Shown here one piece after another: positions 25,963-59,751 of a stretch of 64,000 nucleotides of DNA. Within the stretch, counting starts at the first letter, position 1. Each line of letters begins with the position of its first letter. The notes below the pieces were generated by a model that did no database searches, was not told the DNA's origin, and saw nothing but the letters and a program-made list of their open reading frames with translations. The stretch spans positions 19,809 to 83,808 of the forward strand of contig JBBTSB010000010.1 in assembly GCA_038064915.1 (NCBI GenBank). The letters run 5' to 3'. Source of the DNA: Patescibacteria group bacterium. GTDB taxonomy: Bacteria; Patescibacteriota; Minisyncoccia; 2-02-FULL-40-12; IGHO2-01-FULL-4-A. The position numbers and the translations under genes are program-made.

Positions 25963-25963
25963 G

Positions 25964-26914: not shown

Positions 26915-26921
26915 TTTTTCC

Positions 26922-43536: not shown

Positions 43537-46500
43537 ATGAGTATAGCAACTATCAGAGCAATGTCTTCCAAAAAGACCTTGCTGATCGTAGTCGCCGCGG
43601 CAGCTATCGCTGCAGTCGGAGTATTCTTTGCTCTTCAGCAAGCTGCTCCCACGCAAAGCGTTAGCGCTTTCCAGCCGGGCGACGCCGGTCTTGTAAACGG
43701 GAATCTCATTACTGCCTACAATCAGGCAGGAGACCCCGATGTTTTCGTTATTAAAGAAGTCTATCCTACGGCCACGAAGCGCGTTTTCCAAAACGAAGCG
43801 ATCGGCCGCATGTATGGACAGTTCGGTTATGCGGGTATTTTCACCCCTGGCGTGATCAAGCAAGTTTCCGCATCCACTCGTGATGCGTTTACTCTTGGCT
43901 GCTATGTGAGAAATGCCGAAACGAATGATCCGAAGGTCTACTATCGTAATTCCACGGGTCCCGATACCGCTACGCTCCACTGGGTCAATGTGACCGCAGC
44001 TGAAGCGAATGCCGCAGATTCGATGTTCTTCCCCAAGACATTCGATATCAACAACGCAGAGTTCAACTTCTACGCGCAGGGAGCTGCATACACCAGTATG
44101 TCTCAAATCCCGGCCTGTACGACTGGTGGATCTGCAACTCCAGTACCGGTTCCAGGTGCGGTTTCCGCAAGCCTCTCTCCCGCCAACCCTGCTTCGGCAA
44201 CGGTTACGGGTGGAGCGAGTGGTGTGGAAATGCTCCGTGTCCGCCTGACGGGAACGGGGACACTTAGCACGGTTACCTTCAAGCGCATTGGCGCAGGTTC
44301 CGCGAATGATTTCAGCAATGTATACATCTATGATGGTGCTACCCGCTTGACTTCAGGAAAATCAGTTTCCACGTCAACCGGTGAAACAACCTTCATTAGC
44401 TTGAACATTGCTGTCAACGGTTCGAAAGATCTTTCCCTCGTAGCTGACATTGCTGCCGGACAGACAGCAGGAAACGTAAACGGATTCCAGATAGCTTCCA
44501 TGGGATTGGTTGCCGGTACCGTGACTGGTTTGCCGATTTCCGGCAACCTCTTTACGATGGCCGGAGCTGACAGTGGCATCCTTGATGTCGCGAAAGTGGG
44601 TTCAATCCCCAACCCCGTTGTAGGCCAGAAAGGCGCACAGTTGTCTGAATTTAGACTCACTTCCAACACGGAAGGCTCATGGGTGAAGCGTGTCACTCTC
44701 TTGCAGGGCGGTACGGTCAAGGCCTCTGACATCACCAATGTCAAGATCAAAACCGGTACGACCGAATGGAGCGGTACGGTTACCTCTACCGGCTACCTCG
44801 TCTTCGATATGGGCAGTGGATTCTTCATTGCAAAAGGCGGAGACGCAATCTTCAAGGTCTATGGAGATATGGCAGGCAAGAAGGATGAAGATGTCAATCT
44901 TTACTTCGAATATGCGTCAGATCTATGGGCGGTAGGTGACCAGTTTGGATTCGGTATGAACACCGCATCCGGCACTGCGAACAAAGGTATTGATGCCCTT
45001 GATGCGGCTTCTGAAGCGCACGACGTGACCCTCCAAGGTGGAGCTCTCACGATCGCCTTCAATGGACCGTCCGCAGGGAACATAGGTACCAATACCTCCG
45101 ACACGACCCTCTTGAGAGTATCCATGACTGCAGTTTCGAACATCGAAATCCGCAAGACGGAATTGACTCTCTGTAAGGATCCTGCCGGTGACGGCTCATT
45201 TGGCAATGCCGCAGATACCGACAGCGGTTGGTCAGATATCACCGATATCAAGATGACCGATGAAGCGGCGGGAGGACTTGGTACAGTTCTTGGTCCAGAA
45301 GATGGATCAGCATTTACCACGTCTGATTCCGGCACTTGTGAGGACAGCGTGACCGGAGCTCAAAAGAGCTTCAACAATTCGTTTGTCCTTATGGGCGGAA
45401 AGACCTACAGCTTCAAAGTTACGGGTGATATCAACACTGCAAACACTGATGGTAATGGCGTTGCATTGAGCGCTGCTGATGCGATGCAGCTCTTCCTCGA
45501 CAACTATGCTGATGACACTCCGGATGTGACCATCATGAAATATGATGGTACCAACACGGCAGTTGCGGATGCGGATATTGTTCCGCAATCTGACATCGGC
45601 GGAGGCATCCAGACACTCCAAGCTTCTTCGCTGACGCTTGGTTTGAGCTCGGGTGTTAATGACCAAAGCTTTGTACGTGGCACCCAGGGAATCACGGCAG
45701 TTGGTCTTACCTTCAAGTCGGCGCAAGCTTCAGACATGACGGTGACCGATCTCGTGTTGACAGGGTACTTCTCCGAAGCGGGTTCTACATTCGTAGTCGG
45801 TTCTGATACCACCACGAGTGTTGCGGATCTGGTGAGCGGCGTATCGCTCTATGAAATAGAGTCCAATACGACCATCGCCACGACCCCAACCAGCAACCAG
45901 CTTTCGAACACCACCGGTACGGTGACGTTCAATGGCTTGAACTGGAAAATCCCCGCAGGCGCTACCAAGACGCTTGGCGTAAAAGTCAACCTTGGAAGCA
46001 ATGCACTTGCCGACACCGATTACTTCGCATTCGATATCAACGCGACGACGGATGTCACCGCGCTTGATAAAGATTCGCGTACGGTAAATGCCGGCAACGC
46101 CGATCCAAACAACAGCACCAGCGCTACTACCGTGGTCACCGTCCTCAACTCTGGTTCACTGGCAGTTGCGGTTGCTACGGCAACCACGCCACGTGACCAC
46201 GCAGTCTACTGGGGACAAACCGGTGACTCTGCAGGTGTATGGCGCTTCACGTCAACCAATGAGGCCCAGTACCTAAAGACCCTGCAGTTCGGTGAATACG
46301 ATGCAGGTGGTACCCAGGAAACGGATCTTGCGACCAACGCAAGGACTGTCTACCTTGAGTACAAGAACAAGCTCGGACAGACATTGACAGCCAGCGGAGC
46401 CTTGAGCACTGCGGGAACGACATCATTCGGATTCTCCGATGATGCGACCAGCCCCTACGTACCCAAGGACAGCAGCATGGATGTCACCATCAAGGTTGAC

Positions 46501-47250
46501 TACAAGAACAAGACTGAAGGTGCCTCAACTGGTAAGACCTGGGACTTTGACTTCATCCCCAACACCAGCTCCGGAACTTCAATGTTCAAGGCGATTGGTG
46601 AGGGTTCAGGTGTAGTCATAGATGGTCAGGACACCGGTTTTACGGCGGCAGTCGACCAGGACACAGCAGGTACGGATATCATCATCTACCGTGTGTTCCC
46701 AGAGTTCAAGCTGATTACGCCAACCACGACGAATCTTTCGGTCGTAGATCCGATAGTCTCCTTCACGGTGACTGCCAAGGGTCTTTCCGACTCGAGAGTC
46801 TTCTTCGATGGTACAGCAGCTGGTTCTGGTTCAATCAAGTTCGCGGTGCTCGCCTCCGGGCGTGGCATCACGGCTGATCCGAACTTCACCGTCCGCAAGG
46901 GCGATGGTGTGGTCGTCGACACGGGATCCATCACTGATGCTCCGTTCGCGATCGCTGGACAGCGCGCCAGTATGACTATCGACTTCGGAACCCTGGATGT
47001 GGAAATCACGGGTGGTACTACCCAGACATTCCACGTCTACCTAGATTCGGTTTCAGACTTCAATACACCGGCTCAGTCAAACCCGGCGGTTGCAGCTGAC
47101 TACTTCCAGGTACAGCTCCGAGACGATGAGAACAGTCTGGTCAACTGGGTTGATAGTTCGACGAACTCGTCGAATGACCTCGATACCCAATCAACGTCAG
47201 GGTACTTAATGTACCTGCCGATGAGCGGATATCAGTTCATCGCCCAGTAG
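43537..47250 (+). CDS. 1237-aa secreted Thr/Ser/Gly/Ala-rich, essentially Cys-free, beta-rich surface (S-layer-like) protein; N-terminal ~140-aa domain shared with 31414..33576
   Basis: Signal/anchor sequence; strong compositional bias; long 5' leader; strong terminator downstream. Confidence 0.8.
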   Translation: MSIATIRAMSSKKTLLIVVAAAAIAAVGVFFALQQAAPTQSVSAFQPGDAGLVNGNLITAYNQAGDPDVFVIKEVYPTATKRVFQNEAIGRMYGQFGYAGIFTPGVIKQVSASTRDAFTLGCYVRNAETNDPKVYYRNSTGPDTATLHWVNVTAAEANAADSMFFPKTFDINNAEFNFYAQGAAYTSMSQIPACTTGGSATPVPVPGAVSASLSPANPASATVTGGASGVEMLRVRLTGTGTLSTVTFKRIGAGSANDFSNVYIYDGATRLTSGKSVSTSTGETTFISLNIAVNGSKDLSLVADIAAGQTAGNVNGFQIASMGLVAGTVTGLPISGNLFTMAGADSGILDVAKVGSIPNPVVGQKGAQLSEFRLTSNTEGSWVKRVTLLQGGTVKASDITNVKIKTGTTEWSGTVTSTGYLVFDMGSGFFIAKGGDAIFKVYGDMAGKKDEDVNLYFEYASDLWAVGDQFGFGMNTASGTANKGIDALDAASEAHDVTLQGGALTIAFNGPSAGNIGTNTSDTTLLRVSMTAVSNIEIRKTELTLCKDPAGDGSFGNAADTDSGWSDITDIKMTDEAAGGLGTVLGPEDGSAFTTSDSGTCEDSVTGAQKSFNNSFVLMGGKTYSFKVTGDINTANTDGNGVALSAADAMQLFLDNYADDTPDVTIMKYDGTNTAVADADIVPQSDIGGGIQTLQASSLTLGLSSGVNDQSFVRGTQGITAVGLTFKSAQASDMTVTDLVLTGYFSEAGSTFVVGSDTTTSVADLVSGVSLYEIESNTTIATTPTSNQLSNTTGTVTFNGLNWKIPAGATKTLGVKVNLGSNALADTDYFAFDINATTDVTALDKDSRTVNAGNADPNNSTSATTVVTVLNSGSLAVAVATATTPRDHAVYWGQTGDSAGVWRFTSTNEAQYLKTLQFGEYDAGGTQETDLATNARTVYLEYKNKLGQTLTASGALSTAGTTSFGFSDDATSPYVPKDSSMDVTIKVDYKNKTEGASTGKTWDFDFIPNTSSGTSMFKAIGEGSGVVIDGQDTGFTAAVDQDTAGTDIIIYRVFPEFKLITPTTTNLSVVDPIVSFTVTAKGLSDSRVFFDGTAAGSGSIKFAVLASGRGITADPNFTVRKGDGVVVDTGSITDAPFAIAGQRASMTIDFGTLDVEITGGTTQTFHVYLDSVSDFNTPAQSNPAVAADYFQVQLRDDENSLVNWVDSSTNSSNDLDTQSTSGYLMYLPMSGYQFIAQ

Positions 47251-47298: not shown

Positions 47299-47330
47299 CA
47301 AACCCCCGCTTTGAAAAAAGCGGGGGTTTT
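47299..47330 (+). terminator. Rho-independent terminator AAACCCCCGCTTT-GAAA-AAAGCGGGGGTTTT
   Basis: perfect GC-rich stem plus U-tract. Confidence 0.85.
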
Positions 47331-47347
47331 GCTATGATGGGAAAGCT

Positions 47348-48418
47348 ATGAAACGCATATTTTTGCTACTGATACTTGTCATTTTTGTGGGGGGACTCTT
47401 GATTTGGCAGTCCGAGCGCCGTACAAAGCCTTCCCAGCCTGTACCGCCCGCCGGGTATACCCTTGAAGTCTACGCCCAGAGTTTGGATGATCCGCGGGTG
47501 ATAGCGTTTGATCCCCAGGGACGCATGCTGGTGAGTGAGACCTCCGCCGGACGGGTGACCCTGGTGACTCCGGATCGCAAGGTGCTCCTGGAAGAGCTTG
47601 ACAATCCTCATGGTCTGGCTTTCTATGAAGATAGGTCCGATAGGTCCTATACGACCTATCTGTACGTTGCTACTACACTCGAGGTGGCGCGCTACGCCTA
47701 TGATGTCGCCACTGCTACGGTGGATATTGCCAGCAAGAAAAATATTGTGGATCTTCCCAAAGGCGGCAAGCACTTCATCCGTACGATCGGCTTTGGAAAA
47801 GACTTTCGCGATGCGCCGATCATCGAAGGCTTGTCCCGCGAAAGTTTTTTGAGTCCCATCAAGCTCTATGTGAGTGTCGGTTCATCCTGCGATGCGTGTT
47901 TGGAGAACAGCTGGAAATATGCATCGATTCTGGAGTCTGATTCCAAAGGGACGTATACGGCGGAAGTGGCGGGGGGATTGCGCAACAGCGAATTTTTTAC
48001 CTTCCATCCCACGACAGGGGAACTGTGGGCATCGGAGCAAAGCCGTTCCCGGTTTCCCGATGAAATCAATATCATCAAGCCGCCACTCAAGTACGGCTGG
48101 CCGTACTGCTATGGCAACCAGATGTGGGACACGACGTTTACCGAAACGACCGATCGCACGGACTTGCCGATGGACTGTACAAGAACCGAACCGCCTGTCA
48201 TTGAGCTTCCGGAAAACGCCAATCCCCGTGGCATCGTCTTTTTGTCTCCCACGGAACTCCTCGTGGCCTATCAAGACAAGATCGTGCTTTTTGACGAACA
48301 GCACCAGCCGAGTGACTTTATGAACGGTTCGTTTGCCGATCTCAAGATTGACAGTCATGGCGATCTTTTCATCAGTGATGACAGCGCGGGAATTATTTAC
48401 CGGGTATCGCGTCCGTAA
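47348..48418 (+). CDS. secreted beta-propeller protein, PQQ-dependent sugar dehydrogenase (YliI/sGDH)-like
   Basis: Signal peptide; …FDPQGRMLVSETSAGRV… repeat pattern. Contains the in-frame palindromic repeat encoding EDRSDRSYTTYLY. Confidence 0.55.
   Translation: MKRIFLLLILVIFVGGLLIWQSERRTKPSQPVPPAGYTLEVYAQSLDDPRVIAFDPQGRMLVSETSAGRVTLVTPDRKVLLEELDNPHGLAFYEDRSDRSYTTYLYVATTLEVARYAYDVATATVDIASKKNIVDLPKGGKHFIRTIGFGKDFRDAPIIEGLSRESFLSPIKLYVSVGSSCDACLENSWKYASILESDSKGTYTAEVAGGLRNSEFFTFHPTTGELWASEQSRSRFPDEINIIKPPLKYGWPYCYGNQMWDTTFTETTDRTDLPMDCTRTEPPVIELPENANPRGIVFLSPTELLVAYQDKIVLFDEQHQPSDFMNGSFADLKIDSHGDLFISDDSAGIIYRVSRP
47630..47662. repeat. intragenic in-frame copy of ATAGGTCC/ATAGGTCCTAT palindromic repeat
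   Basis: GATAGGTCCGATAGGTCCTATACGACCTATC inside ORF 47348..48418. Confidence 0.6.
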
Positions 48419-49874
48419 CGCGGTTCTTGCGATACTGCTTGTGTTGGTATTTCTCCAGCCCTTTTTGAGCGCGCGCCGGTTTGGTCCGGTGACGGACGAA
48501 GTACCGCACATCGCCGCCGGCTATTCCTACTGGAAGACGGAGGAAGTCACGCTCAATTCCCAGCATCCTCCGCTGGTCAAACTCCTCGCTACGATCCCCA
48601 TGCTTTTTATGGATATCCGTTTTGATCCTGCCGACATGGCGCTGGGGCAGTGGCTTTTTGGGAGGAAATTTCTCTTTTCAAACGACGTTGATCGAATTCT
48701 CGCCTGGGCTCGCTTGATTCCCATGCTTCTCTCGGTGCTTCTGGGGTACTTCATCTATCGTTGGGCCAGGGAGCTTTTTAAAAATGATTGGGTGGGGATT
48801 TTGGCGCTTGGTATCTATGCGTTCATGCCCCCTATCCTCGCGCATGCCCAATTTGTGACGACGGATCTTGCTGTGGCGGCGTTCAGTTTCATCACCCTGT
48901 ACTTTGTGTGGCGGCGTTCGCTGTGGGCAGGGCTATTTTTGGGGCTGGCGCTTGCGACAAAGTTTTCCGCGCTCGTACTTCTTCCTATTGTTGTCATCGC
49001 GATGGGAGTACGGTGGCGCAAGACGTTGGCGATTCTTGGCATCGCGTTTGCTTTGCTCTATGTGGTATATCTACTTCCCAGCAACCTACACTTCTACCTT
49101 GATGGCTACCGGGCGCTGTATTCTGATCGAAGTCCCGATTACCTCTATTATTTGAACGGCCATTTTTCGGATGACGGGTTTTGGTATTATTTCTTGGAAG
49201 CCTTCCTTATCAAGACGCCAATTCCGTTTTTGATCGGTCTCCTGGGGGCGGTTGTTTATTCCAGTAAGTTCAAATTCAATTGGACAACAAACGTGCTATT
49301 GTGGGGGACTCCCGTGCTGTTTCTACTCGCGACGACGCTCAAGGCTGAGCAAATTGGAGTGCGATATTTATTGCCGATGTATCCGTTTTTGATTGTTTTG
49401 GTGTCGGGTTGGATATTCAAAATTTCAAATTTTAAATTATCATTTTCCATTTTGATTTTTGCATTTTCCATTTGGTACGTCGTTGGCACTGTTCGCATGT
49501 ACCCCGACTATCTTGCGTACTTCAACGAGTCTGTCGGTGGGCCACGCAACGGCTACCGGTATCTCGATGATTCGAATGTGGAATGGGGACAGGATGTAAA
49601 ACGTCTGGCCACGTACCAGCGCGAGCATGCCGGTACCAAGGTCATCTCTCCGTGGGAGGCAATCGACCTGGCATACTACGGAATAGGCGACAACCAGTTT
49701 ACCGCAAGCGGTGAGTGGTGGAAGGACCCGCATGGACGCTACGCGGTGAGCATATTTTATTTGATTCGTGCAAAAGCAGCCGCATTGCGCTATGGAGCTT
49801 CGGAAATTGACTGGCTTTCTCGCTTCCAGCCTGTAGATCGGATCGGCTATTCCTATTTTGTCTACGAATTATGA
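48378..49874 (+). CDS. GT-C membrane glycosyltransferase, GT39/GT83 (PMT/ArnT)-like, no TPR
   Basis: ~11 TM segments; first-loop DE motif (TDEVPHIAAGYSYW). ORF 48333..49874; the start is uncertain and overlaps the upstream gene. Confidence 0.7.
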   Translation: MTARELFTGYRVRNAVLAILLVLVFLQPFLSARRFGPVTDEVPHIAAGYSYWKTEEVTLNSQHPPLVKLLATIPMLFMDIRFDPADMALGQWLFGRKFLFSNDVDRILAWARLIPMLLSVLLGYFIYRWARELFKNDWVGILALGIYAFMPPILAHAQFVTTDLAVAAFSFITLYFVWRRSLWAGLFLGLALATKFSALVLLPIVVIAMGVRWRKTLAILGIAFALLYVVYLLPSNLHFYLDGYRALYSDRSPDYLYYLNGHFSDDGFWYYFLEAFLIKTPIPFLIGLLGAVVYSSKFKFNWTTNVLLWGTPVLFLLATTLKAEQIGVRYLLPMYPFLIVLVSGWIFKISNFKLSFSILIFAFSIWYVVGTVRMYPDYLAYFNESVGGPRNGYRYLDDSNVEWGQDVKRLATYQREHAGTKVISPWEAIDLAYYGIGDNQFTASGEWWKDPHGRYAVSIFYLIRAKAAALRYGASEIDWLSRFQPVDRIGYSYFVYEL

Positions 49875-51487
49875 AATACGCCTTGCTTCTCATCGTGGTC
49901 GTTGCTGCGCTATACGGACAGACGTTTTCATTTGGCTATGTCGGTCTCGATGAAGAAGAGCTCATTGTCCAGCGGCAGGGTTTTTTGCGGAATCCGGCAA
50001 ACATTCCCGTGATATTCACACACGATGTCAGCTATCCCAATAAAACTTCTCCGTACTACCGTCCAATGCTCACCCTATCGTTCATGGCGGATGCCATGAT
50101 CGGCGGTACGAGCAACGTAGTGGCGCACCTTACCAATGTACTCTTGCACATCGTTGCCGTCTTGCTCCTTTGGCGATTTTTTATTGCGCTTGGCATTGAG
50201 AAGTCCAAATCATTTTTTTATTCTCTGATCTTTGCTGTCCATCCTGTTTTCTCCCAAGCTGTCGCATGGGTGCCGGGGAGAAATGACACGCTATTGGCCG
50301 TTTTCGTTCTTTCCTCGTGCATCTTTTTTCTCAAGTCTCTTCGCCTCCGTTCGTGGAAACCGCACGCGGTACACTTTGCTTTGTTTGCGCTCGCGCTGTT
50401 GACCAAGGAAACCGCGGTTGTGGTTCCGATCATCATTATAGGAATATGGCTTTGGTTTTCTGGCGTGCCGTTTTCTTGGCGGCGTTTTTGGAGCTACGCA
50501 GTGCCTTGGATGATTCTTCTTGTTATCTGGTATGCCGTTCGGGCGCATGCACTTTCTTCCATCCCGGGGAAATCTCTGTCCGCAATGTTGTCGCAGATCT
50601 TGGGCTACGCTCCCCAGGTAGTGGTCTACTTGGGAAAAATCATATTACCATTTCAGCTTTCTGTGATGCCTTCCGCAGGGGATAGTGTTATTTGGTTTGG
50701 TTTGGGGGCTCTTATCATTCTGTGTGCCCTGGTATATATCAGCAGGAAATACTTGCGATCTTCACAGGTATTCTTTGGTGCTTGCTGGTTCTTGTCGTTC
50801 TTGGTTCCATCGCTGATCAGCTATGATGATCCGTCCAGGGTGGTATTTTTTGAACATCGGCTTTACCTGCCGCTGATCGGTGTATTGCTCATATTTGCAT
50901 TGCTTCCGGGGAGAGTCTGGAAAATCGGCGCACCCATCCTTGTTGGTTTTGCCGTGCTTGCTTTTTTTCATGTTCGAACATTTCGCAGTGAAATTTCTTT
51001 CTGGGAGCAGGCTGTATCGTCATCACCCAGTATGGCTCGCGCGCGCAACTCTTTGGGAGTTGCCTACGCCAATGCGGGACGCCTCGGAGATGCGTTTCAG
51101 GAATATCAAACCGCGTACCGCATGACCCCGGATGATTATTTGATCAATACCAGTTTGGGGAATGCCTATCGGTTGCGGCGAGAACCGGCGCTTGCCGAAG
51201 AGCACCTCAAAAAAGCTATTTCCATAAATCCTGCCCGCGCGCCAGCGCATCACTACCTGGGATTCCTCTATGCAACACAAAAGCGTTTTTCTGAAGCCGA
51301 GCAGGAATGGTTTCTTGCGCTTCAATACAATTCACAGTACGCTCCACCACATGAAGCTTTGGCGGTATACTATGCACAGGTAGGGCGATTTGAAGAATCC
51401 ATCGTGCACATCCGCGCCATCATGGAACTGGGAGCTCCAGTTCTTCCCGAACTTATGAACATATTGCAGACACATCAACAGCCATGA
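49871..51487 (+). CDS. TMTC/PMT_2-like GT-C membrane glycosyltransferase with C-terminal TPR repeats (paralog 1)
   Basis: ATGA coupling to the upstream gene; DEEE loop motif, YYRP motif, TPR tail. Confidence 0.75.
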   Translation: MKYALLLIVVVAALYGQTFSFGYVGLDEEELIVQRQGFLRNPANIPVIFTHDVSYPNKTSPYYRPMLTLSFMADAMIGGTSNVVAHLTNVLLHIVAVLLLWRFFIALGIEKSKSFFYSLIFAVHPVFSQAVAWVPGRNDTLLAVFVLSSCIFFLKSLRLRSWKPHAVHFALFALALLTKETAVVVPIIIIGIWLWFSGVPFSWRRFWSYAVPWMILLVIWYAVRAHALSSIPGKSLSAMLSQILGYAPQVVVYLGKIILPFQLSVMPSAGDSVIWFGLGALIILCALVYISRKYLRSSQVFFGACWFLSFLVPSLISYDDPSRVVFFEHRLYLPLIGVLLIFALLPGRVWKIGAPILVGFAVLAFFHVRTFRSEISFWEQAVSSSPSMARARNSLGVAYANAGRLGDAFQEYQTAYRMTPDDYLINTSLGNAYRLRREPALAEEHLKKAISINPARAPAHHYLGFLYATQKRFSEAEQEWFLALQYNSQYAPPHEALAVYYAQVGRFEESIVHIRAIMELGAPVLPELMNILQTHQQP

Positions 51488-53169
51488 AGTACGCAGTCAT
51501 CATTCTCATTCTTGTCGGTGCGCTGATCTATGGTTTTAATGTAACCGGCCAGCTTTTGTGGGATGACATCGAATGGATCGCGACCAATCCTTTTGTCCAC
51601 TCGTTTTCGTGGGACAATATCAAACATTGGTTCAGTGGTAATGTTTTGGAGGGAATTGGTCTCTCGAGCAATTACTACCGGCCGTTCCTCTTTGCCACAT
51701 TCACCTTTAACTACGTCATGCACGGCGTACATCCTGTTGGATGGCATGTTGTAAGCAATCTAATTCATATTGCCAACGCCATCCTTCTTGTTTTCCTGTT
51801 GATGCGCCTGTTTGGCAATCGATTTCTTGCTTTTTGGGTTGGTCTGATCTTCCTCGTTCATCCGCTTCAAACCGAGGCGGTGACATACATCTCCGGCCGG
51901 GGGGATCCTCTGGCCGCGCTTTTCATGCTTTCCGCGCTGTTGCTATTCCTTCGGGGCCGGCGTGTTCTCCCGCTTGTTTTTCTTGTACTTGCGCTCTTGA
52001 GTCGAGAAACAGCAATCATGTTTCCGTTCCTCCTGATGATCGTGCTGATCGTGCAGAGTAAAGAGACATTCTGGCGCTCGCTGAAAAAATCTTTTTTTCA
52101 AGCATTGCCGTATGTTGGCGTTGTCACCGCCTATGGCATATTGCGTCTTACGGTGCTGAACTTTGACAACACGCTCAATTTTTTCTCTTCCGCTGTTTCC
52201 AATCCCTACACGCAAAGTGTATTCGTCCGCCTGATTACCTTCTTGAGCATCCTGCCGACCTATGGCCGGCTTCTTCTGGTTCCCCTTGGTCTCCATATGG
52301 ACCGTGCGCCGGCCGTATATACGTCGCTGACGTTCTGGGAAGTGTGGGTGCCCCTGGTGGTGCTTCTGGGGCTCCTGTATGTGACCTATACGACCTATAG
52401 GTCTCATAGGACCTATGCTGGGGTTCTGTTTTTTGGCATTGCATGGTTTTTTGCGGCGATCAGTCCCATGAGCGGCATCACGCCTATCAATGCGATCATG
52501 TACGAGCACTGGCTCTACGTTCCACTCATTGGACCGTTTACGATTATCGTATATTTTCTTTCGCGCATTTCCTACCGCAAAGCGGTCATTGCCGTTCTTG
52601 TATTACTTACGGCTTGGTTTTCGTACCTTGCGATCCAACGCAATAGAATTTGGTCGAATCCAATTGCGCTGTTTGAAGATATCTTGCGCTATGAGCCCAT
52701 GAGTGCGCGGGCGCTGACCAATGCCGCGAACCTCTACTTTGAACAGGGTGATACCGCAATGGCCGAGGCCTACTACCGACGTGCCATCGCCACCAATACC
52801 TCATTTCCCCAAGCTTACTACAATCTTGCTCGGCTCCACCGCGAGCAGGGGAGATACACAGAAACGCTGCCCTTGCTCCGCCGTGCGCTTGATCTGGATC
52901 CAGGTTTTTTCTACGCCTACCAGGAGCTTGCCATCGTTTATGCGCATGAGGGGGATTTCATCCGGTCCCGCGATGCGCTTCTTGCGCTACGCGAACTGCG
53001 TCCTCAAGACCCGCGCGTGTATTTGAATTTGGGCAAAGTTGAACAGGCCCTGGGAAACACTCGTGAGGCGATACGCTGGTTGACTGCAGGATTACCGCTC
53101 TCGGAAAGTGATCTTGAGGCGCACCAGGAAATCCAAGCACTTCTTGACCAACTTGCCAAAAAACGGTAG
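51484..53169 (+). CDS. TMTC/PMT_2-like GT-C glycosyltransferase with C-terminal TPR repeats (paralog 2)
   Basis: ATGA coupling; WDD, YYRP, TPR tail. Contains the in-frame palindromic repeat (VTYTTYRSHRTYA). Confidence 0.75.
   Translation: MKYAVIILILVGALIYGFNVTGQLLWDDIEWIATNPFVHSFSWDNIKHWFSGNVLEGIGLSSNYYRPFLFATFTFNYVMHGVHPVGWHVVSNLIHIANAILLVFLLMRLFGNRFLAFWVGLIFLVHPLQTEAVTYISGRGDPLAALFMLSALLLFLRGRRVLPLVFLVLALLSRETAIMFPFLLMIVLIVQSKETFWRSLKKSFFQALPYVGVVTAYGILRLTVLNFDNTLNFFSSAVSNPYTQSVFVRLITFLSILPTYGRLLLVPLGLHMDRAPAVYTSLTFWEVWVPLVVLLGLLYVTYTTYRSHRTYAGVLFFGIAWFFAAISPMSGITPINAIMYEHWLYVPLIGPFTIIVYFLSRISYRKAVIAVLVLLTAWFSYLAIQRNRIWSNPIALFEDILRYEPMSARALTNAANLYFEQGDTAMAEAYYRRAIATNTSFPQAYYNLARLHREQGRYTETLPLLRRALDLDPGFFYAYQELAIVYAHEGDFIRSRDALLALRELRPQDPRVYLNLGKVEQALGNTREAIRWLTAGLPLSESDLEAHQEIQALLDQLAKKR
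52383..52417. repeat. intragenic in-frame copy of the ATAGGACCTAT palindromic repeat
   Basis: GACCTATACGACCTATAGGTCTCATAGGACCTATG inside ORF 51484..53169. Confidence 0.6.
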
Positions 53170-53185
53170 TCTTGCAGATACTACC

Positions 53186-53692
53186 ATGAAGAAAAACATC
53201 TTATTTGTCCTTATATTAGTGGTTATTATTCTCGGAGGGGCGTTTGTCGTGTGGAACAATAGACAGTCCGCTCAACCGAACCCTTCTCCGTCAAGTAGTG
53301 CTATCGCACCGACGCCCTCTCCCAGCGGGGCGGACATTACCCAGTTTACGAAACCGGCCAGCTGTCAGCTTTCCGGATCCATTGATTTTTTGCAAAAAAA
53401 TATCTTTCGTTCCAACGACGCTCTGTTCCGATATCAGGGCATTGACAATGAGGCGCGTTTGATCACCTGGACGGTCAGTCCAACCGATGAGTTTTCGATC
53501 GGCCCGAACATTTTTGCAAACCTTGATATTCCGGACGGCAGTCGTTCGCTTACGATTTCTCTTCCCGCCGAACCAAAAGCTCGCCAGTATACATTGACCG
53601 CTCGTATCTCCTATGGTCGCTGGGTCAATAACACCGTCGTTGTAAAAGAAGCACGATGCTCCGGTTCAATCCCCGTATATCTTCGCTATTAG
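53186..53692 (+). CDS. small secreted/membrane-anchored hypothetical protein (169 aa)
   Basis: ATG 53186 within ORF 53108..53692; signal peptide MKKNILFVLILVVIILGGAFVVW. Confidence 0.5.
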   Translation: MKKNILFVLILVVIILGGAFVVWNNRQSAQPNPSPSSSAIAPTPSPSGADITQFTKPASCQLSGSIDFLQKNIFRSNDALFRYQGIDNEARLITWTVSPTDEFSIGPNIFANLDIPDGSRSLTISLPAEPKARQYTLTARISYGRWVNNTVVVKEARCSGSIPVYLRY

Positions 53693-55455
53693 CGCTCTCT
53701 GCAAGCCTCATACTATCATTTGCGCTGTTTGGCAACGGCATAAAAGGAGATTATGTTTTTGACGACAAAATAGTCATTCTGGGCAATCCGCATTTGGAAG
53801 AGCGTCCGCCGAGTCTTATAGACATCTTTAGCGATTCCTACCATGCATACCAGCCGACGACCGGTTTGTATCGGCCGCTGACGATCGCAAGCTTTGCACT
53901 GAACACGTATATGTTCGGAACGTCGCCGGTGAGTTTTCATGTGTTCAATATCATCCTCCACGCTCTTGTGGGGTTCATGATCTATGTAATCGTCGGAAGT
54001 CTTGCCGATATGCGCACGGCCGTGGTAAGCGCGCTCCTGTTTCTGTTCCTTCCCATCCATGTCGAAGATGTTACGTCCTTGGTGGGTCGCGCGGAGCTTT
54101 TGGCGCTTTTGTTTTCGCTTGTAGCGCTGTATGCGGTCATGCGCGGAAAGTATCATTGGGGGGCGCTGGCGTTTCTTTTGGGGCTTTTCAGCAAGGAATC
54201 CGCGATCGCATTCATTCCGATTTGGCTTTCCTGGGAATATTTTTTCAACAAACAAACGATTCGCACAATCCTCAAGCGATTTTTGATTATGCTTCCTGCA
54301 ATCAGTATATATGCGGTGCTCCGTTATCTAGCTTTGGGGAAATATGTTCTTGCCAACGATGCCACGGCCGTCTACAATCCGCTCAAATTTGCTCCTTTTT
54401 TTGATACACTGTGGACCAGCGGCAAAATCGCTTTTCTCTATATTCAAAAAATGTTGGTGCCCACGGTTTTTTCTTCGGATTATTCGTTCAACCAGATTCC
54501 CGTCGTCCACAATCCCTTTAGCTCCTGGCAGGCCCTGCTCGGATTGACGATACTCGCGGGACTTGTGTGGATTGCCGTAAAAAAGCGGCGTTCGCTTGTT
54601 GGATGGTCTGCCGTAGTGTTTCTTGCTTTTTATTTCATCATATCAAATCTTATTTTCAAAACCGGTACCATCATGGCGGAGCGTTTGGTATATGCCGCAT
54701 CGCTTGGTCTGGTGATGTTATTGGCGCTGTGTATAGAGCATCTCCGAAAAAAAATCGGTCATGAAAAGGTCATCTATGGCGCTTTGACAATTATGTTGAT
54801 TTTCTATGGATACAAAACTATCAATCGCAATTCTGTTTGGATCAGCGAGGAACGGCTTTTTGCGTCTGCCGTTGTCGTGGCTCCGGAGAGTGTTGTGAAC
54901 CGCACCAACCTTGCCTATCTTCGCTATGTCCAAAAAGATCTTGAGGGCGCAAAGACGGAAAGCGAAGGAGTGTTGGCTATCGCTCCCGACCATGTGCCCG
55001 CTCTCAACCTGGCCGCGCAATCAAACAAAAAGCTTGGCAACCCCAAGGTTGCAGAAGATTACTGGAAGCGTGCCATTGAGCTCCGTCCAGATTATGTCCG
55101 CGGATATTTGGGATTGGGTGTGTTATACTACGAAAATGGTCACTTTCCGGACGCAGAGCTCATTCTTACCAAGGCGGTAAATATTTTCCCGCGCTGGAGT
55201 GAGGTGCTGTTTCTCTCGCTGACCAAAACGGCGCTAAAGAAATACGATGAGGCGATTGCGATTGTTATTCAGCACTTCGGAGAAGATCCGGAGCGACCGG
55301 ACCTCATCTTTGCTCTCGGCGTAGCCTACTACAAAAAAGGCGACCGCGAGCATGCCATGAAGTACCTGCGCAAGGTCCAAAATCCCAACCTTACCCAAGA
55401 GCAATTTTTACAAACCATTGAAAAAAACACTATTTTTCTCATTACTGATCTGTAG
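53656..55455 (+). CDS. TMTC/PMT_2-like GT-C glycosyltransferase with TPR (paralog 3)
   Basis: VFDDKIV, GLYRPL, TPR tail; very similar to paralog 5. Confidence 0.75.
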   Translation: MLRFNPRISSLLALSASLILSFALFGNGIKGDYVFDDKIVILGNPHLEERPPSLIDIFSDSYHAYQPTTGLYRPLTIASFALNTYMFGTSPVSFHVFNIILHALVGFMIYVIVGSLADMRTAVVSALLFLFLPIHVEDVTSLVGRAELLALLFSLVALYAVMRGKYHWGALAFLLGLFSKESAIAFIPIWLSWEYFFNKQTIRTILKRFLIMLPAISIYAVLRYLALGKYVLANDATAVYNPLKFAPFFDTLWTSGKIAFLYIQKMLVPTVFSSDYSFNQIPVVHNPFSSWQALLGLTILAGLVWIAVKKRRSLVGWSAVVFLAFYFIISNLIFKTGTIMAERLVYAASLGLVMLLALCIEHLRKKIGHEKVIYGALTIMLIFYGYKTINRNSVWISEERLFASAVVVAPESVVNRTNLAYLRYVQKDLEGAKTESEGVLAIAPDHVPALNLAAQSNKKLGNPKVAEDYWKRAIELRPDYVRGYLGLGVLYYENGHFPDAELILTKAVNIFPRWSEVLFLSLTKTALKKYDEAIAIVIQHFGEDPERPDLIFALGVAYYKKGDREHAMKYLRKVQNPNLTQEQFLQTIEKNTIFLITDL

Positions 55456-57064
55456 TGCGATTGTAGCGATCTACGCGCAAACGCTGAAGTTTGATTTTGT
55501 GTCCCTGGACGAGGAGGATCACCTTGCCAACCGCCAGTATTTTCTCTCATCAGTAAAAAATATTCCGGAAGCTTTTCAGCACAACACCTACTATCCCAAT
55601 GGAACATCGCAATACTACCGGCCCCTGCACACGATTTCCTTTATGCTCGATGCGATCGGCGACATCACTCCGTCAAAATCCCACGCCATCAACATCGTTC
55701 TCCACATGGGTGCGGCGTTGCTGCTGTTTTGGTTCATGCGGGAGCTGGGGATTGGAAAAACGGCTTCATTTTTTCTCGCACTGCTCTTCGCGGTACACCC
55801 GATCGGCAGTCGAATCGTGGGATGGGTGCCGGGGCGGAATGACGCCACGTTTGCTATATTTGCGATAGCCTCGTGTATCGCGTATCTCCGATGGGTGGCT
55901 CATCCCGAGCGCTGGTGGCTCATGGCGGTGCACCTGGTGCTGTTTTTTGCAGCTTTCTTGAGCAAGGAATTGGGCATCGTTTTGCCTATTCTGTACGTGC
56001 TCATGCCTCGCAATTATGTTGTATCTCGAAAACACGTTGGTCTGGTGGCCGGCGGTTGGATTCTTATCGTCATTTTCTGGTGGCTCATGAGATCCGAAGC
56101 ACTTGCGGGAACGGTTGTTACCGCGTGGAACGATTTGTTGCTGGGACTTTTTCCCAATACCGTTGCCATTCCTTTCTATCTCCAGATTTCTTCGTTGCCG
56201 CTCCATCCGTCCGTTATGCCGACGATGCAGGATGCGCTTCATTGGCTACCCATTGTCGTCAGCGGAGCTTTTATTGCCATACTCATCGTGCTTGGGAAGC
56301 GATTTCAACCCCGCAGTAATTTGCTTCTCTTTGGTATTGCCTGGTTTCTCCTATTTCTTCTTCCTTCTCTTGCGGGGTATGGATCGGATATCCGTCTGGT
56401 GCTATTTGAACACCGAGCCTATGTTCCGCTCATGGGACTGCTGTTTATTGCCGCCGCTTTTCCCTGGGGCCGCATGATTCCTTTCTCCCGTTCCCGTCGC
56501 TTCATCCTTGCGGGAGCTGTAGTTGCCGTGTATGGTGTTTTTGCCTTTTTGGGAACTCGTGATTTTCGGGATGCTTTGACATTTTGGGAAAAAGCAGTAG
56601 CGCAAGCGCCCGACTACGCCGGATCACATAAAGGGCTGGGAACGGTGTATGTCAACAGAGGACGTTTTGATGATGCCGTGAACGAGTTTCAAAAAGCGCT
56701 CGAACTGAATCCGACAGAAAAACGCGTACACAACAACCTCGGCATTATTTACCTGAACCAACGGCGGGTGCAGGAGGCGGAAATGGAATTTCTCTCGGAG
56801 CTTGACGTAAACCCCGGCTATGCGATCACCTACAACAACCTCGGGTTTGTGTACGCCACGCAGAAGCGATTTGCAGACGCGGAAAAAGCATGGCTTACGG
56901 CGCTGGTGTTCGATCCCTGGTATGCCGCTCCGCACCAGGGCCTGGCTATTATCTATGCCATTGCAAACAATAAAGAGCAGTCCTTGGCCCACATTGAGGC
57001 GCTCGTGAAGCTTGGTGCCCCGCTTTCTCCGGATATACAGAAGATCTATGAAAGTTACCGGTAG
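55418..57064 (+). CDS. TMTC/PMT_2-like GT-C glycosyltransferase with TPR (paralog 4)
   Basis: SLDEED, QYYRPL, TPR tail. Confidence 0.75.
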   Translation: MKKTLFFSLLICSAIVAIYAQTLKFDFVSLDEEDHLANRQYFLSSVKNIPEAFQHNTYYPNGTSQYYRPLHTISFMLDAIGDITPSKSHAINIVLHMGAALLLFWFMRELGIGKTASFFLALLFAVHPIGSRIVGWVPGRNDATFAIFAIASCIAYLRWVAHPERWWLMAVHLVLFFAAFLSKELGIVLPILYVLMPRNYVVSRKHVGLVAGGWILIVIFWWLMRSEALAGTVVTAWNDLLLGLFPNTVAIPFYLQISSLPLHPSVMPTMQDALHWLPIVVSGAFIAILIVLGKRFQPRSNLLLFGIAWFLLFLLPSLAGYGSDIRLVLFEHRAYVPLMGLLFIAAAFPWGRMIPFSRSRRFILAGAVVAVYGVFAFLGTRDFRDALTFWEKAVAQAPDYAGSHKGLGTVYVNRGRFDDAVNEFQKALELNPTEKRVHNNLGIIYLNQRRVQEAEMEFLSELDVNPGYAITYNNLGFVYATQKRFADAEKAWLTALVFDPWYAAPHQGLAIIYAIANNKEQSLAHIEALVKLGAPLSPDIQKIYESYR

Positions 57065-58805
57065 CAAGTATCTCTTGGTGGGTTTGGCTGTTTCGTTTGC
57101 GCTTTTCAGCAACGGAATACGGGGAGACTTTGTTTTTGATGACGCGATCGTCATTGTTGGCAATCCCATTATTGAGCGGGGGATTTCCGGGGTGGTTGAG
57201 GCCTTCCGGTCACCCTACCACGCTTACCAACCCAAGACAGGCCTTTATCGTCCGCTTACGATTTTTTCTTATTCGCTGAATTACGCTATATTCGGCACTT
57301 CACCGGTGAGCTTTCATGTGGTTAACATTGTTCTGCATGGGCTCGTTGGGTTTTTTATTTTCTTGGTCCTTCAACAGATTGGTGGCAAGCGCGCGGCTAT
57401 TCTTGGCATGTTGCTGTTCCTCGCGTTTCCCATTCATGTCGAGGACGTGACGTCTATCGTAGGCCGTGCTGAACTCCTCGCCCTGCTGTTTGTTCTTGCG
57501 GCTTTGTATAGTGCCATGCGACATCGGTACATCCTTGCATCCTGTATGTTTTTGCTCGGCATCTTGAGTAAAGAATCCGCGATCGTATTTTTGCCAATGT
57601 GGCTTGCGTGGGAATACTTCTTTAACAAACAAACGATTCGCACCATCCTCAAGCGATTTTTGATTATGATTCTTGCAATAAGTATGTATGCGGTGCTCCG
57701 CTATCTGGCACTGGGGGAATATTTTCTCGCCAACGATGCCACTCCCACGTACAACGCTCTCAAATTCGCTACCATTCCCCAAACCCTATGGACATCAGGG
57801 AAGATTTTTTTTCTGTATCTGCAAAAAACGTTGTTCCCGACGGTTTTTTCGCCCGACTATTCGCTTTTCCAGATACCGTTGCTCAACAGTCCTCTGGCGT
57901 CATGGGAGTCGATCGTGGGAATAGTGCTACTTGTCGGCTGTATCGTGATTGCATGGCGAAATCGGCGTTCTCCCTTGGGGTGGTTTGTTCTATTCTTTTT
58001 GAGTTCCTACTTTATTATTTCCAATCTTGTTTTCAAAACCGGCACAATCATGGCCGAGCGCATTCTGTATCCAGCCACCTTTGGCCTTGCGGCGATGACT
58101 GCGTATGGCATCGAGTGGTTGAGACAGAAATGGGGGCATGAGAAGGTGATCTATGCGAGTGTAACTCTTCTACTCCTTTTCTATGGCTTCAAAACAATCC
58201 AGCACAACCGTGACTGGATCAGCGAAACTAATCTTTTTCAACGAGCCTATGCTTCCGCGCCGTTGAGTATTCCCAATAGGGTAAACCATGCATATTTGGC
58301 GTATCGAGATAACAACTATGCGCGTGCTGTTGATGAACTGGAAGCGACGTTGACCGTTGTGCCCGATCATGTCCCCGCCTTGCATCTTGCGGGGCAAGCA
58401 TATAAAAAAATGGGCAACGTGGGTAAGGCAGAGGAGTATTGGAAAAAAGCAGTTGCATTGCAACCCGACTATCTTGCCGCTTACCTTGGTCTGGGAATGC
58501 TGTATTATGAGCAGGGGCATTTTGCGTCCGCGGAGGCGGCGCTTGATGACGCGGTGGCCGTCTTTCCTCGTTCTAGCGAAGTCGCCTATCTTTCATTGGC
58601 AAAGACCGGTCTCAAAAAATATGACGAAGCGATTTCGATTGTGGAGAACTATTTTGGAAAAAATCCCGGCCAGGTTGAATTGCGTCTTGCTCTTGGCATC
58701 GCCTGGTACAAAAAGGGCGACAAGGAGCGGGCATCGGAATACATCAGCGCTGATTATTTTCCCACGATTGAGAAAAATTCGATCTTTCGAATCATTGACC
58801 TATAG
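57048..58805 (+). CDS. TMTC/PMT_2-like GT-C glycosyltransferase with TPR (paralog 5)
   Basis: ATG 57048 within ORF 57012..58805; VFDDAIV, GLYRPL; long identical stretches with paralog 3 (for example KQTIRTILKRFLIM). Confidence 0.75.
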   Translation: MKVTGSKYLLVGLAVSFALFSNGIRGDFVFDDAIVIVGNPIIERGISGVVEAFRSPYHAYQPKTGLYRPLTIFSYSLNYAIFGTSPVSFHVVNIVLHGLVGFFIFLVLQQIGGKRAAILGMLLFLAFPIHVEDVTSIVGRAELLALLFVLAALYSAMRHRYILASCMFLLGILSKESAIVFLPMWLAWEYFFNKQTIRTILKRFLIMILAISMYAVLRYLALGEYFLANDATPTYNALKFATIPQTLWTSGKIFFLYLQKTLFPTVFSPDYSLFQIPLLNSPLASWESIVGIVLLVGCIVIAWRNRRSPLGWFVLFFLSSYFIISNLVFKTGTIMAERILYPATFGLAAMTAYGIEWLRQKWGHEKVIYASVTLLLLFYGFKTIQHNRDWISETNLFQRAYASAPLSIPNRVNHAYLAYRDNNYARAVDELEATLTVVPDHVPALHLAGQAYKKMGNVGKAEEYWKKAVALQPDYLAAYLGLGMLYYEQGHFASAEAALDDAVAVFPRSSEVAYLSLAKTGLKKYDEAISIVENYFGKNPGQVELRLALGIAWYKKGDKERASEYISADYFPTIEKNSIFRIIDL

Positions 58806-59717
58806 GAGAGCTTCGATATCACGGACCATTTTTTTTAAATCAAATCGGTGCAAGATCGTTTGGTGTCCTTGAATGGCGAATTCTTGGCGCAGGCGGTCGT
58901 TGTCCATCAGTTTAAATATGGCATCGGCAATCCGTTCCGGTTTTTTGGGTTCGACGAGAAAACCATTGACCCCATCCTGAATCATTTCGGGTGCCGCACC
59001 TACACGCGTCGCGACGATGGGAACCTTGGCCGCCATGGCTTCCAGAAGCGCCCAAGAAAAACCCTCTTTGACCGAAGACGAAACATATACATCAAAGGCA
59101 CGCAGGAAGCGTGAGGCGTTCGGTGTATCGCTCAAGATTTTTACGAGGTAGCGGTTATGCCGGGGAAGATACTCCAAGCCTTTAGCGGGATATGGGTTGG
59201 CGATAGTTCCCACGACAAAGGCATCGGCAGGAAGGTCAAGCTTTGTCCGCGCTTCGTCCCGCGGCAAAAATTCCATCTTATACACATCAAGCCCGTTGTG
59301 AATCACGAGGAGTTTTTCGCGCGGCTTGATGCCATAGCGAATCGCTTGTTGGTAGTCGTGGTCGTTGTTGAGAATGATGATGTCCCGCCATCGGGCGAGC
59401 AGTTGTTCCACAAACCGCATCAGCGGCCGCCACCAGGGCTTGGGATCGTTGAAAGACCATCCTCCGATGCGATACACCACACGTGCTTTTGTTCCTATGG
59501 CTGCAAGAGTACCCCATCCGCCCGCCACCGAACTCATGAGAAATAACGTATCGGGTTTGAAATCTGCAATCGCTTTTCGTATCTTGAAAAAGTTTTTTTC
59601 ATGGAGGACCTCGTACGAAAATCGCGACCGGTCAATGCGGCTTTCCAGTTCTCGAAGAAACGTTTGCGCCCCCCCGATGCCTCCCTGACTGATAACAAAG
59701 AGTATCTTCTTCACCTT
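58800..59717 (-). CDS. GT4 family glycosyltransferase
   Basis: EGFSWALLEAMAAKVPIVATRVG motif. The ORF extends to 59828, but the likely start is the GTG near 59717 (VKKILFVISQGGIGG). Confidence 0.7.
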   Translation of the reverse strand, partial: KVKKILFVISQGGIGGAQTFLRELESRIDRSRFSYEVLHEKNFFKIRKAIADFKPDTLFLMSSVAGGWGTLAAIGTKARVVYRIGGWSFNDPKPWWRPLMRFVEQLLARWRDIIILNNDHDYQQAIRYGIKPREKLLVIHNGLDVYKMEFLPRDEARTKLDLPADAFVVGTIANPYPAKGLEYLPRHNRYLVKILSDTPNASRFLRAFDVYVSSSVKEGFSWALLEAMAAKVPIVATRVGAAPEMIQDGVNGFLVEPKKPERIADAIFKLMDNDRLRQEFAIQGHQTILHRFDLKKMVRDIEALL

Positions 59718-59751
59718 GAAAAAATACAACAAAAATGATATTTTATCAAGT

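Follow-up and report, generated by a model that had tools for sequence, protein, structure and literature searches.

A cluster of TMTC-like GT-C/TPR genes beside a large Ig-like surface protein gene in a Patescibacteria genome and its possible role in extracytoplasmic O-glycosylation

Results

The gene array and its setting

The stretch of DNA analyzed here, referred to as the window, comprises 64 kb of a Patescibacteria group bacterium genome (assembly GCA_038064915.1, contig JBBTSB010000010.1, positions 19,809 to 83,808 of the forward strand) and contains six genes, G1–G6, for membrane glycosyltransferases of the GT-C fold class, five of which carry C-terminal tetratricopeptide repeats (TPRs). 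SLP denotes the 1,237-residue protein encoded upstream of these genes, and S denotes the 168-residue gene product encoded among them (Table 1). The bacterial nature of the window follows from its content, which includes a class A RNase P, a tRNA-Gly, a ribosomal-protein operon, SecY, EF-Tu, RecA, and LepA. Identical proteins are recorded on a metagenome scaffold from a 0.1-μm filter of Hainich groundwater in the European Nucleotide Archive (ENA), and in NCBI as a “Patescibacteria group bacterium” metagenome-assembled genome (MAG). Loci fetched from other genomes are labeled L0xx, with L001 being the ENA scaffold of the same genome as the window.

Table 1. Features of the window that bear on the glycosyltransferase array (positions in the window)
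Feature	Positions	Strand	Remarks
WbaP/WcaJ-type polyprenyl-phosphate hexose-1-phosphate transferase (PGT)	34785-36170	+	Bac_transf E 7.8e-60; TIGR03025 366.7 bits, above cut-off
Upstream GT4	36420-37619	+	Pfam
DUF4012 protein	37564-40122	+	Pfam
SLP	43537-47250	+	1,237 aa; N-terminal signal/anchor, then chain of beta-sandwich (Ig-like) domains; proposed acceptor
Promoter-like site	47311-47338	+	10/12 consensus matches plus extended TG; consensus match only; just 5' of propeller/GT-C block
GSDH-like beta-propeller	47348-48418	+	N-terminal membrane anchor; PF07995 GSDH, E 8.4e-12
G1	48378-49874	+	498 aa; PMT_2-family GT-C without TPR
G2	49871-51487	+	538 aa; TMTC-like GT-C with 5 TPR hairpins; lineage A
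G3	51484-53169	+	561 aa; TMTC-like GT-C with TPR; lineage B
S	53186-53692	+	168 aa; between G3 and G4
G4	53656-55455	+	599 aa; TMTC-like GT-C with 6 TPR hairpins; lineage C
G5	55418-57064	+	548 aa; TTG start; TMTC-like GT-C with TPR; lineage A, G2 paralogue
G6	57048-58805	+	585 aa; TMTC-like GT-C with 6 TPR hairpins; lineage C, G4 paralogue
GT4	58800-59828	-	Glycos_transf_1 and Glyco_transf_4; convergent with G6; first of the GT4/GT2 block; orthologues in same position in L090-L093
GT4	59716-60738	+	Glycos_transf_1 E 1.9e-40; orthologues in L090, L092, L093
GT2, DPM1-like	60707-61381	+	Glycos_transf_2 E 2.5e-28; orthologue in L093
GT4	61460-62542	+	Pfam, NCBIfam; orthologues of this GT4 pair (with next row) in L090, L091, L093
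GT4	62539-63468	+	Pfam, NCBIfam

A sequence-only reading of this DNA had described six consecutive, co-directional GT-C genes that are mostly coupled through ATGA overlaps. The six open reading frames (ORFs) are indeed where it placed them, all on the forward strand, and homologue E values down to 1e-275 indicate that they are real genes; the TTG start of G5 is the start used in the ENA gene call. The genes are not strictly consecutive, as the conserved gene S splits G3 from G4, and ATGA overlaps proved to be the exception, occurring at two of the seven junctions of the co-directional block (G1/G2 and G2/G3); the remaining junctions are overlaps of 17–41 nt or a 16-nt gap. The neighbors named in that reading, i.e., a Thr/Ser-rich 1,237-residue protein, a GSDH-like propeller, and a downstream GT4/GT2 cluster, are all present. 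All six proteins are multi-pass membrane proteins with an acidic DE or DD pair in the first loop (residues 27–40).

Pairwise comparison shows that G1 is barely related to G2–G6 and that the five TPR proteins fall, by sequence, into three old lineages: A (G2 and G5, 38% identical over 551 residues), B (G3, which is approximately 25% identical to G2, G4, G5, and G6 along its whole length), and C (G4 and G6). The third and fifth TPR paralogs, which are G4 and G6, had been thought to result from a recent duplication because they share long identical stretches. The two proteins share 59% identity, their longest uninterrupted match spans 20 residues, and their genes are 77% identical over 300 nt. 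Since the G4 orthologue on L081 scores 941 bits against G4, compared with 752 bits for G6, the duplication predates the split between these species and is not recent.

The expansion itself is unusual, as had been proposed. Among 79 species-representative loci centered on a G2-like gene, 71 contain one copy within ±10 kb, seven contain two, one contains three, and none contains more, compared with five tandem copies here. Related cassettes with an SLP homologue hold one or two detectable TMTC-like genes, so that the five TPR proteins plus G1 are the largest set among the loci examined. The only other triple tandem in the survey consists of three A-type GT-C/TPR genes in a Planctomycetia MAG (L013, 4133–9270).

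G2–G6 resemble the catalytic domains of TMTC1–4

To compare the membrane domains of the window proteins with animal enzymes, we rebuilt the N-domains of human TMTC1–4 from the alignment in the supplement of Eisenhaber et al. 2021 (PMC7801869) and used BLASTP. All five TPR proteins are significantly similar to the human catalytic domains, in agreement with the TMTC-like label they had been given. G4 (79–119 bits, approximately 425 columns, 26–28% identity) and G6 (67–104 bits, approximately 420–430 columns, 24–27% identity) align end to end, and G3 scores 62–79 bits, with 25% identity over 434 columns with TMTC4. The similarity of G2 and G5 (50–67 bits) covers the first 100–205 residues, and a profile of lineage A matches the TMTC alignment with an hhalign probability of 99.9%. 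G4 and G6 score just 36–56 bits against their neighbors G2 and G5 and are thus closer to the human TMTCs than to these neighbors. G1 showed no similarity to TMTC1–4.

The conserved TMTC motifs have been assigned to sugar, phosphate, and metal binding (PMC7801869). Motifs M1 (DD), M2 (YRP), M3 (RxD), M4 (KE(T/Q)), and M7 (ERxxY) all occur in G2–G6, with the variants DE, GRAE, RE, and EHRxY; in G3, the last motif reads EHWLY, with W in place of R. Hence, D27 (DD/DE), YRP, GRx(D/E), (K/R)E, and E..xxY are kept in all five proteins. D27 is invariant in 63 homologues; these and the five proteins likewise show no variation in YRP, GRx(D/E), (K/R)E, and E...Y. No copy has lost the catalytic acidic motif, and the motifs are intact in all five TPR proteins. 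The YRP motif, which had been ascribed to all six proteins, is present in G2–G6 and absent from G1.

The structure that AlphaFold predicts for G2 from 63 homologues (predicted local distance difference test score (pLDDT), 95.4; predicted TM-score, 0.93), has 11 transmembrane (TM) helices, juxtamembrane helices in outer loops one and four, and ten TPR helices. The model superposes on solved GT-C enzymes, with values of 19.2 for yeast Pmt4 (309 residues aligned), 18.6 for ALG12, 17.7 for AglB, 16.4 for both ArnT and STT3B, and 15.9 for Pmt2. A sequence search of the PDB with G2 gave TPR matches only, the same search with G1 gave no match, and none of the PDB searches performed yielded a TMTC structure. 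Because simple hydropathy counts are unreliable (6–10 TM helices per protein), the AlphaFold helices were used in their place. With 11 helices, the five short loops on the N-terminal side contain 12 Lys/Arg residues, compared with three in the short opposite loops. The prediction thus puts the N terminus inside and the first-loop Asp and the TPR arm outside, as the sequence-only reading would have them. In this model, the first outer loop and later ones make up the active site, and the TPR arm is predicted to share the outer side of the membrane with it.

Standard family profiles capture these proteins poorly. PMT_2 had been assigned to all five TPR paralogs. In Pfam, G1, G2, and G6 (26.5 bits; cut-off, 26.1) match PMT_2 above the threshold, G4 (21–22 bits) remains below it, and G3 and G5 have no match. 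PMT (PF02366) does not match G2–G6, Wzy_C (PF04932) matches none of G1–G6, and no protein of the array contains a MIR domain. G3 weakly matches NF046093, a family described as “cell surface glycopolymer formation protein.” C-terminal TPRs were detected by Pfam in each of G2–G6, as noted before.

Lineage B is well conserved (42–51% identity over >120 clusters), and its named top matches are all from Patescibacteria or unclassified MAGs. Lineage A has a wider distribution, which includes Bacteroidota, Omnitrophota, Elusimicrobia, and Gammaproteobacteria. A search of genome contigs with the single G4 sequence found no relatives; an alignment-based search did. The only label that public databases give to lineages B and A' is “tetratricopeptide repeat protein,” because Pfam PMT_2 misses these proteins, and the lesson for annotation is that TMTC-like enzymes overlooked by PMT_2 are now filed as mere TPR proteins. 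Full-length homologues, with both the transferase and the TPR part, have already been reported from many poorly characterized prokaryotes (PMC7801869). The enzyme kind is therefore known and not new.

SLP is a candidate surface protein made of Ig-like domains

SLP is rich in Thr (12.4%) and Ser (9.1%), which together make up 21.5% of its residues, as well as in Ala (11%) and Gly (10.6%). It has no match in Pfam or NCBIfam. Its family comprises 172 clusters, nearly all of 1,190–1,280 residues, whose members are 28–66% identical to SLP; the named matches are all from Patescibacteria (Yanofskybacteria, Nomurabacteria, and the Parcubacteria group) or unclassified MAGs. “Hypothetical” is the annotation of most family members, and a peptidoglycan-binding domain (PG_binding_1) is present in some.

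In the AlphaFold model of residues 38–1237 (pLDDT 87), a small N-terminal α/β domain is followed by a chain of β-sandwiches, and nearly all of the structure is β. Foldseek matches include the Ig-like domains of PrgB, a mastigoneme protein, macroglobulin (MG) domains, the Haloferax volcanii S-layer protein (7ptp), and integrin legs. The match to the H. volcanii protein (E 7.6e-11, with a low TM-score) is one among many, and TM-scores are low, as is to be expected when the query is flexible and consists of multiple domains. The model thus supports the view that SLP is a surface protein composed of Ig-like domains, and a function as an S-layer protein is plausible.

A second large secreted protein, with a lamin-tail domain (LTD) and 313–1,455 residues, is encoded 5' of the SLP homologue in L088, L089, L090, L091, and L093 and adjoins it directly in L089 and L093. 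At this place the window has DivIC and a tRNA-Gly; a NosD-like β-helix protein is encoded at 31414–33576.

S is a small conserved component

S was overlooked in the sequence-only reading and is conserved in related genomes. Alignment with nine homologues shows that a TM anchor at the N terminus is followed by a Ser/Pro/Thr-rich linker, whose length varies, and by a conserved domain of approximately 110 residues with two conserved Cys residues. The protein has no family match in Pfam or NCBIfam, and its own family is small (95 clusters at 50% identity). Its gene lies between the SLP and GT-C genes in L084–L086, L088–L090, L092, and L093. S could serve as an accessory subunit, or it could itself be a second acceptor.

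The ENA scaffold has a gap of 10 Ns inside S (near position 53546 of the window, position 9880 of L001), which shortened the ENA gene call to 140 residues. An assembly artefact was ruled out, as the window reads through in frame and S aligns with its homologues without gaps.

G1 and the propeller

G1 had been labeled GT39/ArnT-like. Its match to PMT_2 (32.8 bits; cut-off, 26.1) identifies it as a PMT_2-family GT-C enzyme, and the GT39 label is approximate only, as the PMT threshold is not reached (20.7 bits; cut-off, 22.7); GT87 is also just under its threshold. Among G1 orthologues, a DE..H motif in the first loop is invariant, and these orthologues match the TM profile of the G2 family with an hhalign probability of 92.7%. 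The C terminus of G1 is a conserved soluble domain of approximately 125 residues. Orthologues of G1 lie within the cassettes of L082, L083, L085, and L088.

Homologues of the propeller are encoded 3' of the GT-C genes in L084, L086, L088, and L090, usually right after the TMTC-like genes. This recurrence indicates that the GSDH/TrAA12-like propeller is a conserved member of the cassette, and it might bind or oxidize sugars.

The array is linked to SLP and S in other genomes

Linkage between SLP, S, and the transferases was assessed with two sets of loci. The first set was fetched through GT-C genes, and the window proteins were searched against the ORFs of these loci; this set is biased by that choice. 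Here, an SLP homologue lies directly upstream of TMTC-like genes in L011, L023, L084, L085, and L086, and the recurrent order is SLP, S, a B-type gene, a C-type gene, and then a G1-type gene or the propeller. The second, unbiased set consists of six loci (L088–L093) fetched through SLP homologues alone, which are 33–47% identical to SLP. In five of these (L088, L089, L090, L092, and L093), S and one or two TMTC-like genes lie within 8 kb downstream of SLP, which answers the earlier call for a check of synteny in related genomes. Several SLP-fetched loci also hold the propeller, G1, and the same block of GT4 (reverse strand), GT4, GT2, GT4, and GT4, and L092 repeats the order DUF4012-LepA-...-SLP of the window. 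Overall, in 10 of the 11 SLP loci examined, SLP and S are followed by GT-C genes.

Lineage B shows the most constant linkage to SLP and S, with G3 orthologues in L082–L086, L088–L090, and L093, and lineages B and C form an adjacent pair in seven related loci. The linkage to SLP and S is also found without an adjacent GT4 block (L084–L086 and L089).

We conclude that, on balance, the window seems to hold an enlarged version of a cassette that is common to Parcubacteria-group Patescibacteria and that makes and decorates a large surface protein. Literature searches on Patescibacteria O-mannosyltransferases or on S-layer glycosylation in the candidate phyla radiation found nothing relevant, and the cassette (Ig-like surface protein, S, and three transferase lineages) appears to be undescribed in the literature searched.

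Some cassettes contain further TPR proteins. One of approximately 650 residues, which the TM-domain profile missed, is encoded between S or G1 and the B-type gene in L088 (17202–19145) and L089 (14533–16503) and may be a fourth, more divergent lineage. Another, encoded directly after the propeller in L088 (22701–23657), combines Wzy_C and TPR and is of the O-antigen ligase/O-oligosaccharyltransferase type.

Candidate genes for a lipid-linked donor

Five GT4 genes and one DPM1-like GT2 gene lie 3' of the array. The best NCBIfam matches of the GT2 protein are AglJ, PgfS, PpgS, ArnC, and dolichyl-phosphate hexose transferase, all below the cut-offs. These matches make the GT2 a candidate polyprenyl-phosphate-sugar synthase, which would make the lipid-linked donor. 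Of the 86 loci with a G2-like or G4-like gene, 28 also have a homologue of this GT2, often directly 5' of that gene. The window also encodes two lipid-carrier housekeeping proteins, BacA/UppP (6550–7317) and a DedA-family protein (33573–34274, reverse strand).

Discussion

A proposed O-glycosylation pathway

That the upstream surface protein is glycosylated is an idea based on guilt by association. It is considerably strengthened because the linkage of SLP, S, and TMTC-like genes recurs in five of the six SLP-fetched loci and in five further loci. With modest confidence, we favor a role of the array in extracytoplasmic O-glycosylation of SLP from polyprenyl-phosphate sugars; the conserved gene linkage makes SLP the most likely acceptor. 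In such a pathway, the DPM1-like GT2 (60707–61381) would load a monosaccharide onto polyprenyl phosphate at the cytoplasmic face, and the lipid-linked sugar would be flipped across the membrane. The GT-C enzymes would then move the sugar to Ser/Thr residues of secreted proteins emerging from the Sec translocon, with the TPR arm picking the acceptor or the site. SLP would be the acceptor, the Ser/Pro/Thr-rich linker of S being a possible second one. The presence of several enzymes is probably explained by differences between the lineages in the acceptor site or the sugar. Lineages B and C may act together and, by analogy with Pmt1/Pmt2, they might do so as a heteromer.

The presence of the undecaprenyl-phosphate genes BacA and DedA in the window supports this proposal, and there are two precedents. 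One is TfpW, a characterized bacterial GT-C enzyme with a periplasmic TPR domain that O-glycosylates pilin. The other is provided by TMTC1–4 and TMEM260, which act on Ig-like extracellular cadherin (EC) and IPT domains, respectively (PMC11292533), and whose action on these domains would be paralleled by modification of SLP.

The likeness to TMTC1–4, protein O-mannosyltransferases (CAZy family GT105) that act on cadherin EC domains in the endoplasmic reticulum, is threefold. Like G2–G6, these enzymes combine an 11-TM GT-C domain with TPRs on the catalytic side; they share the motifs DD, (S)YRP, GRx(D/E), KE.., and ER..Y with the window proteins; and their acceptors are Ig-like β-sandwich domains, the same kind of domain as is predicted for the likely acceptor SLP. 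Unlike TMTC1–4, the window system is bacterial and resides in the plasma membrane, its donor would be a bacterial polyprenyl-phosphate sugar instead of dolichyl-phosphate mannose, its TPR arm is shorter (5–6 hairpins), and its genes are clustered with that of the putative substrate. The PMT family (GT39; yeast Pmt1/2/4 and actinobacterial Pmt) likewise uses polyprenyl-phosphate mannose from a DPM1-like GT2 to O-glycosylate Ser/Thr residues of secreted proteins, and PMT dimers may be paralleled by the adjacent B and C genes. Unlike PMTs, the window proteins have no MIR domain, the TPR arm taking the place of the luminal β-trefoil, and even G1 stays below the Pfam PMT threshold.

Several observations weigh against O-glycosylation of SLP. 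Gene linkage by itself does not identify an acceptor, and L091, one of the six SLP-fetched loci, has GT4 genes and no TMTC-like gene within 10 kb. The PGT and the five or more GT4 genes of the neighborhood would build a lipid- or wall-linked glycan, which is itself a possible acceptor. A TPR arm is no proof of a protein substrate, since polysaccharide-secretion proteins can have TPR domains as well. No flippase gene was recognized in the window. The TMTC_DUF1736 domain (PF08409) was detected only in G4 (residues 241–288), at 17.1 bits with a cut-off of 27, and not in the other proteins; the metal-binding motif DW reads DY in G4 and G6, and no equivalent Asp is evident in G2 and G5. Because of this shortfall, we class the proteins as TMTC-like homologues and not as members of the animal family. 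Mannose must not be assumed to be the sugar transferred.

Alternative functions

In an alternative that we consider unlikely, yet the main rival, the GT-C enzymes would decorate, at the outer face, a lipid- or wall-linked polysaccharide that the PGT and GT4 enzymes produce, adding side-branch sugars carried by polyprenyl phosphate, as in GtrA/B/C, ArnC/ArnT, GT136, and Emb/Aft; the modified polymer might be the anchor of the surface protein. In favor of this view, the region encodes the WbaP/WcaJ-type PGT along with six or more GT4 enzymes, the GT4/GT2 block has been conserved together with the cassette, and G3 has its weak match to NF046093. Moreover, the three-component paradigm is widespread in bacteria, and systems such as GtrA/B/C, ArnC/E/F/T, GT136, and PgfS/PgfM likewise pair a GT2 polyprenyl-phosphate-sugar synthase with an outer-face GT-C enzyme. 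Unlike these systems, the window has no recognized flippase gene, its GT-C enzymes have TPR arms, and there are five to six of them instead of one. TPR arms are absent from the glycan-modifying GT-C enzymes described to date, whose extra domains, if any, are carbohydrate-binding modules. Both the closest relatives of known function, TMTC1–4, and the closest characterized bacterial architecture, TfpW, act on proteins. Finally, the tightest linkage of the array is with SLP and S, even where no GT4 block is adjacent (L084–L086 and L089).

The PGT and GT4 enzymes could also build an undecaprenyl-diphosphate oligosaccharide that one or more of the TPR GT-C enzymes would transfer en bloc to SLP, in the role that Wzy_C proteins such as WsaB and PglL play elsewhere. 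The combination of a surface-protein gene, a PGT, and many glycosyltransferases resembles S-layer glycosylation (slg) clusters of Gram-positive bacteria, in which the surface-protein gene is accompanied by a WsaP-type PGT and a Wzy_C oligosaccharyltransferase. The window and the slg clusters share the surface-protein gene, a WbaP-like PGT, and many GT2/GT4 genes, and the scanned ORFs of the window include no Wzy_C protein. TfpW, moreover, has been proposed both to polymerize and to transfer an oligosaccharide. The candidate transferases of the window differ from those of slg clusters, however, in being GT-C/TPR enzymes and not Wzy_C proteins, with a donor that is probably a monophosphate-linked monosaccharide. 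Such donors are used throughout the PMT/TMTC/ArnT branch (established for PMT and ArnT and modeled for TMTC; PMC7801869), the conserved (K/R)E and E..R..Y motifs suit one phosphate, and the DPM1-like GT2 is co-conserved. In addition, the L088 cassette has a separate Wzy_C/TPR gene besides its GT-C genes. Taken together, these points make en bloc transfer improbable.

Could the enzymes glycosylate type IV pilins, as TfpW does in Pseudomonas aeruginosa, with the linkage to SLP being incidental? TfpW, a pilin O-arabinofuranosyltransferase, shares with the window proteins a GT-C domain of approximately 11 TM helices, a periplasmic C-terminal TPR domain, and a DDx motif in periplasmic loop 1, and its YX6PFX7P motif before the TPRs resembles the invariant Y-x6-P-x6-P of the window proteins; this likeness is one of described architecture and motif. 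Patescibacteria are rich in type IV pili. Nevertheless, we think such a role very improbable. No prepilin-type motif was found in the 64-kb window, and none of the genes for a D-arabinofuranose donor (DprE1/E2 and PRPP transferase) was seen at the locus. The tfpW gene adjoins that of its protein substrate, as we propose here, its position being immediately downstream of pilA; in the present case the neighbor is a 1,200-residue Ig-like protein instead of a pilin, and the GT-C genes follow SLP and S in 10 of 11 SLP loci.

It is equally hard to credit that part of the set has no catalytic function and serves export and assembly of the surface protein as scaffolds or chaperones: degenerate copies are possible among five paralogues, and G3 has W in place of R in EHWLY, but the first-loop Asp and the YRP, GRx(D/E), (K/R)E, and E...Y motifs do not vary among the five proteins and the 63 homologues, and lineage B, to which G3 belongs, is strongly conserved.

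Implications of a possible TMTC-type glycosylation of SLP

If O-glycosylation of SLP by TMTC-like enzymes is real, one may ask whether TPR-guided O-glycosylation of Ig-like domains is an old bacterial invention and not an animal one, available in the Parcubacteria group as a self-contained cassette (SLP, S, GT2, and three transferase lineages); this we suggest tentatively, and with more doubt than conviction. Were it so, the cassette would be the simplest available system for finding out how TMTC and TMEM260 recognize folded or folding Ig-like domains. For TMTC1–4 and TMEM260, the choice of particular strands in cadherin and IPT domains still awaits an explanation (PMC11292533). As genes for a probable Ig-like substrate, a small partner, and a candidate donor synthase accompany those of the TMTC homologues in the cassette, reconstitution in bacteria and structures of enzyme–substrate complexes would come within reach. 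For Patescibacteria, the findings point to a conserved protein of approximately 1,200 residues as a major surface component that is probably glycosylated, and glycosylation of SLP would bear on host attachment by episymbionts and on phage recognition.

Other features of the window

A second GT2, of 293 residues, is encoded at 26748–27629. The window also contains a diversity-generating retroelement (24355–26914), whose reverse transcriptase ORF lies at 25964–26914 (RVT_1, E 7.5e-19). Its template repeat of 110 nt (25491–25600) corresponds to a variable repeat (25097–25206) that forms the 3' end of a 293-residue ORF (24355–25236) without a Pfam match, and all mismatches between the repeats are A in the template copy and G or C in the variable copy. 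Avd-like genes (PF05635/bAvd), which are accessory genes of such retroelements, occur within or beside the SLP cassettes of L088 (19174–19542) and L091 (21948–22307).

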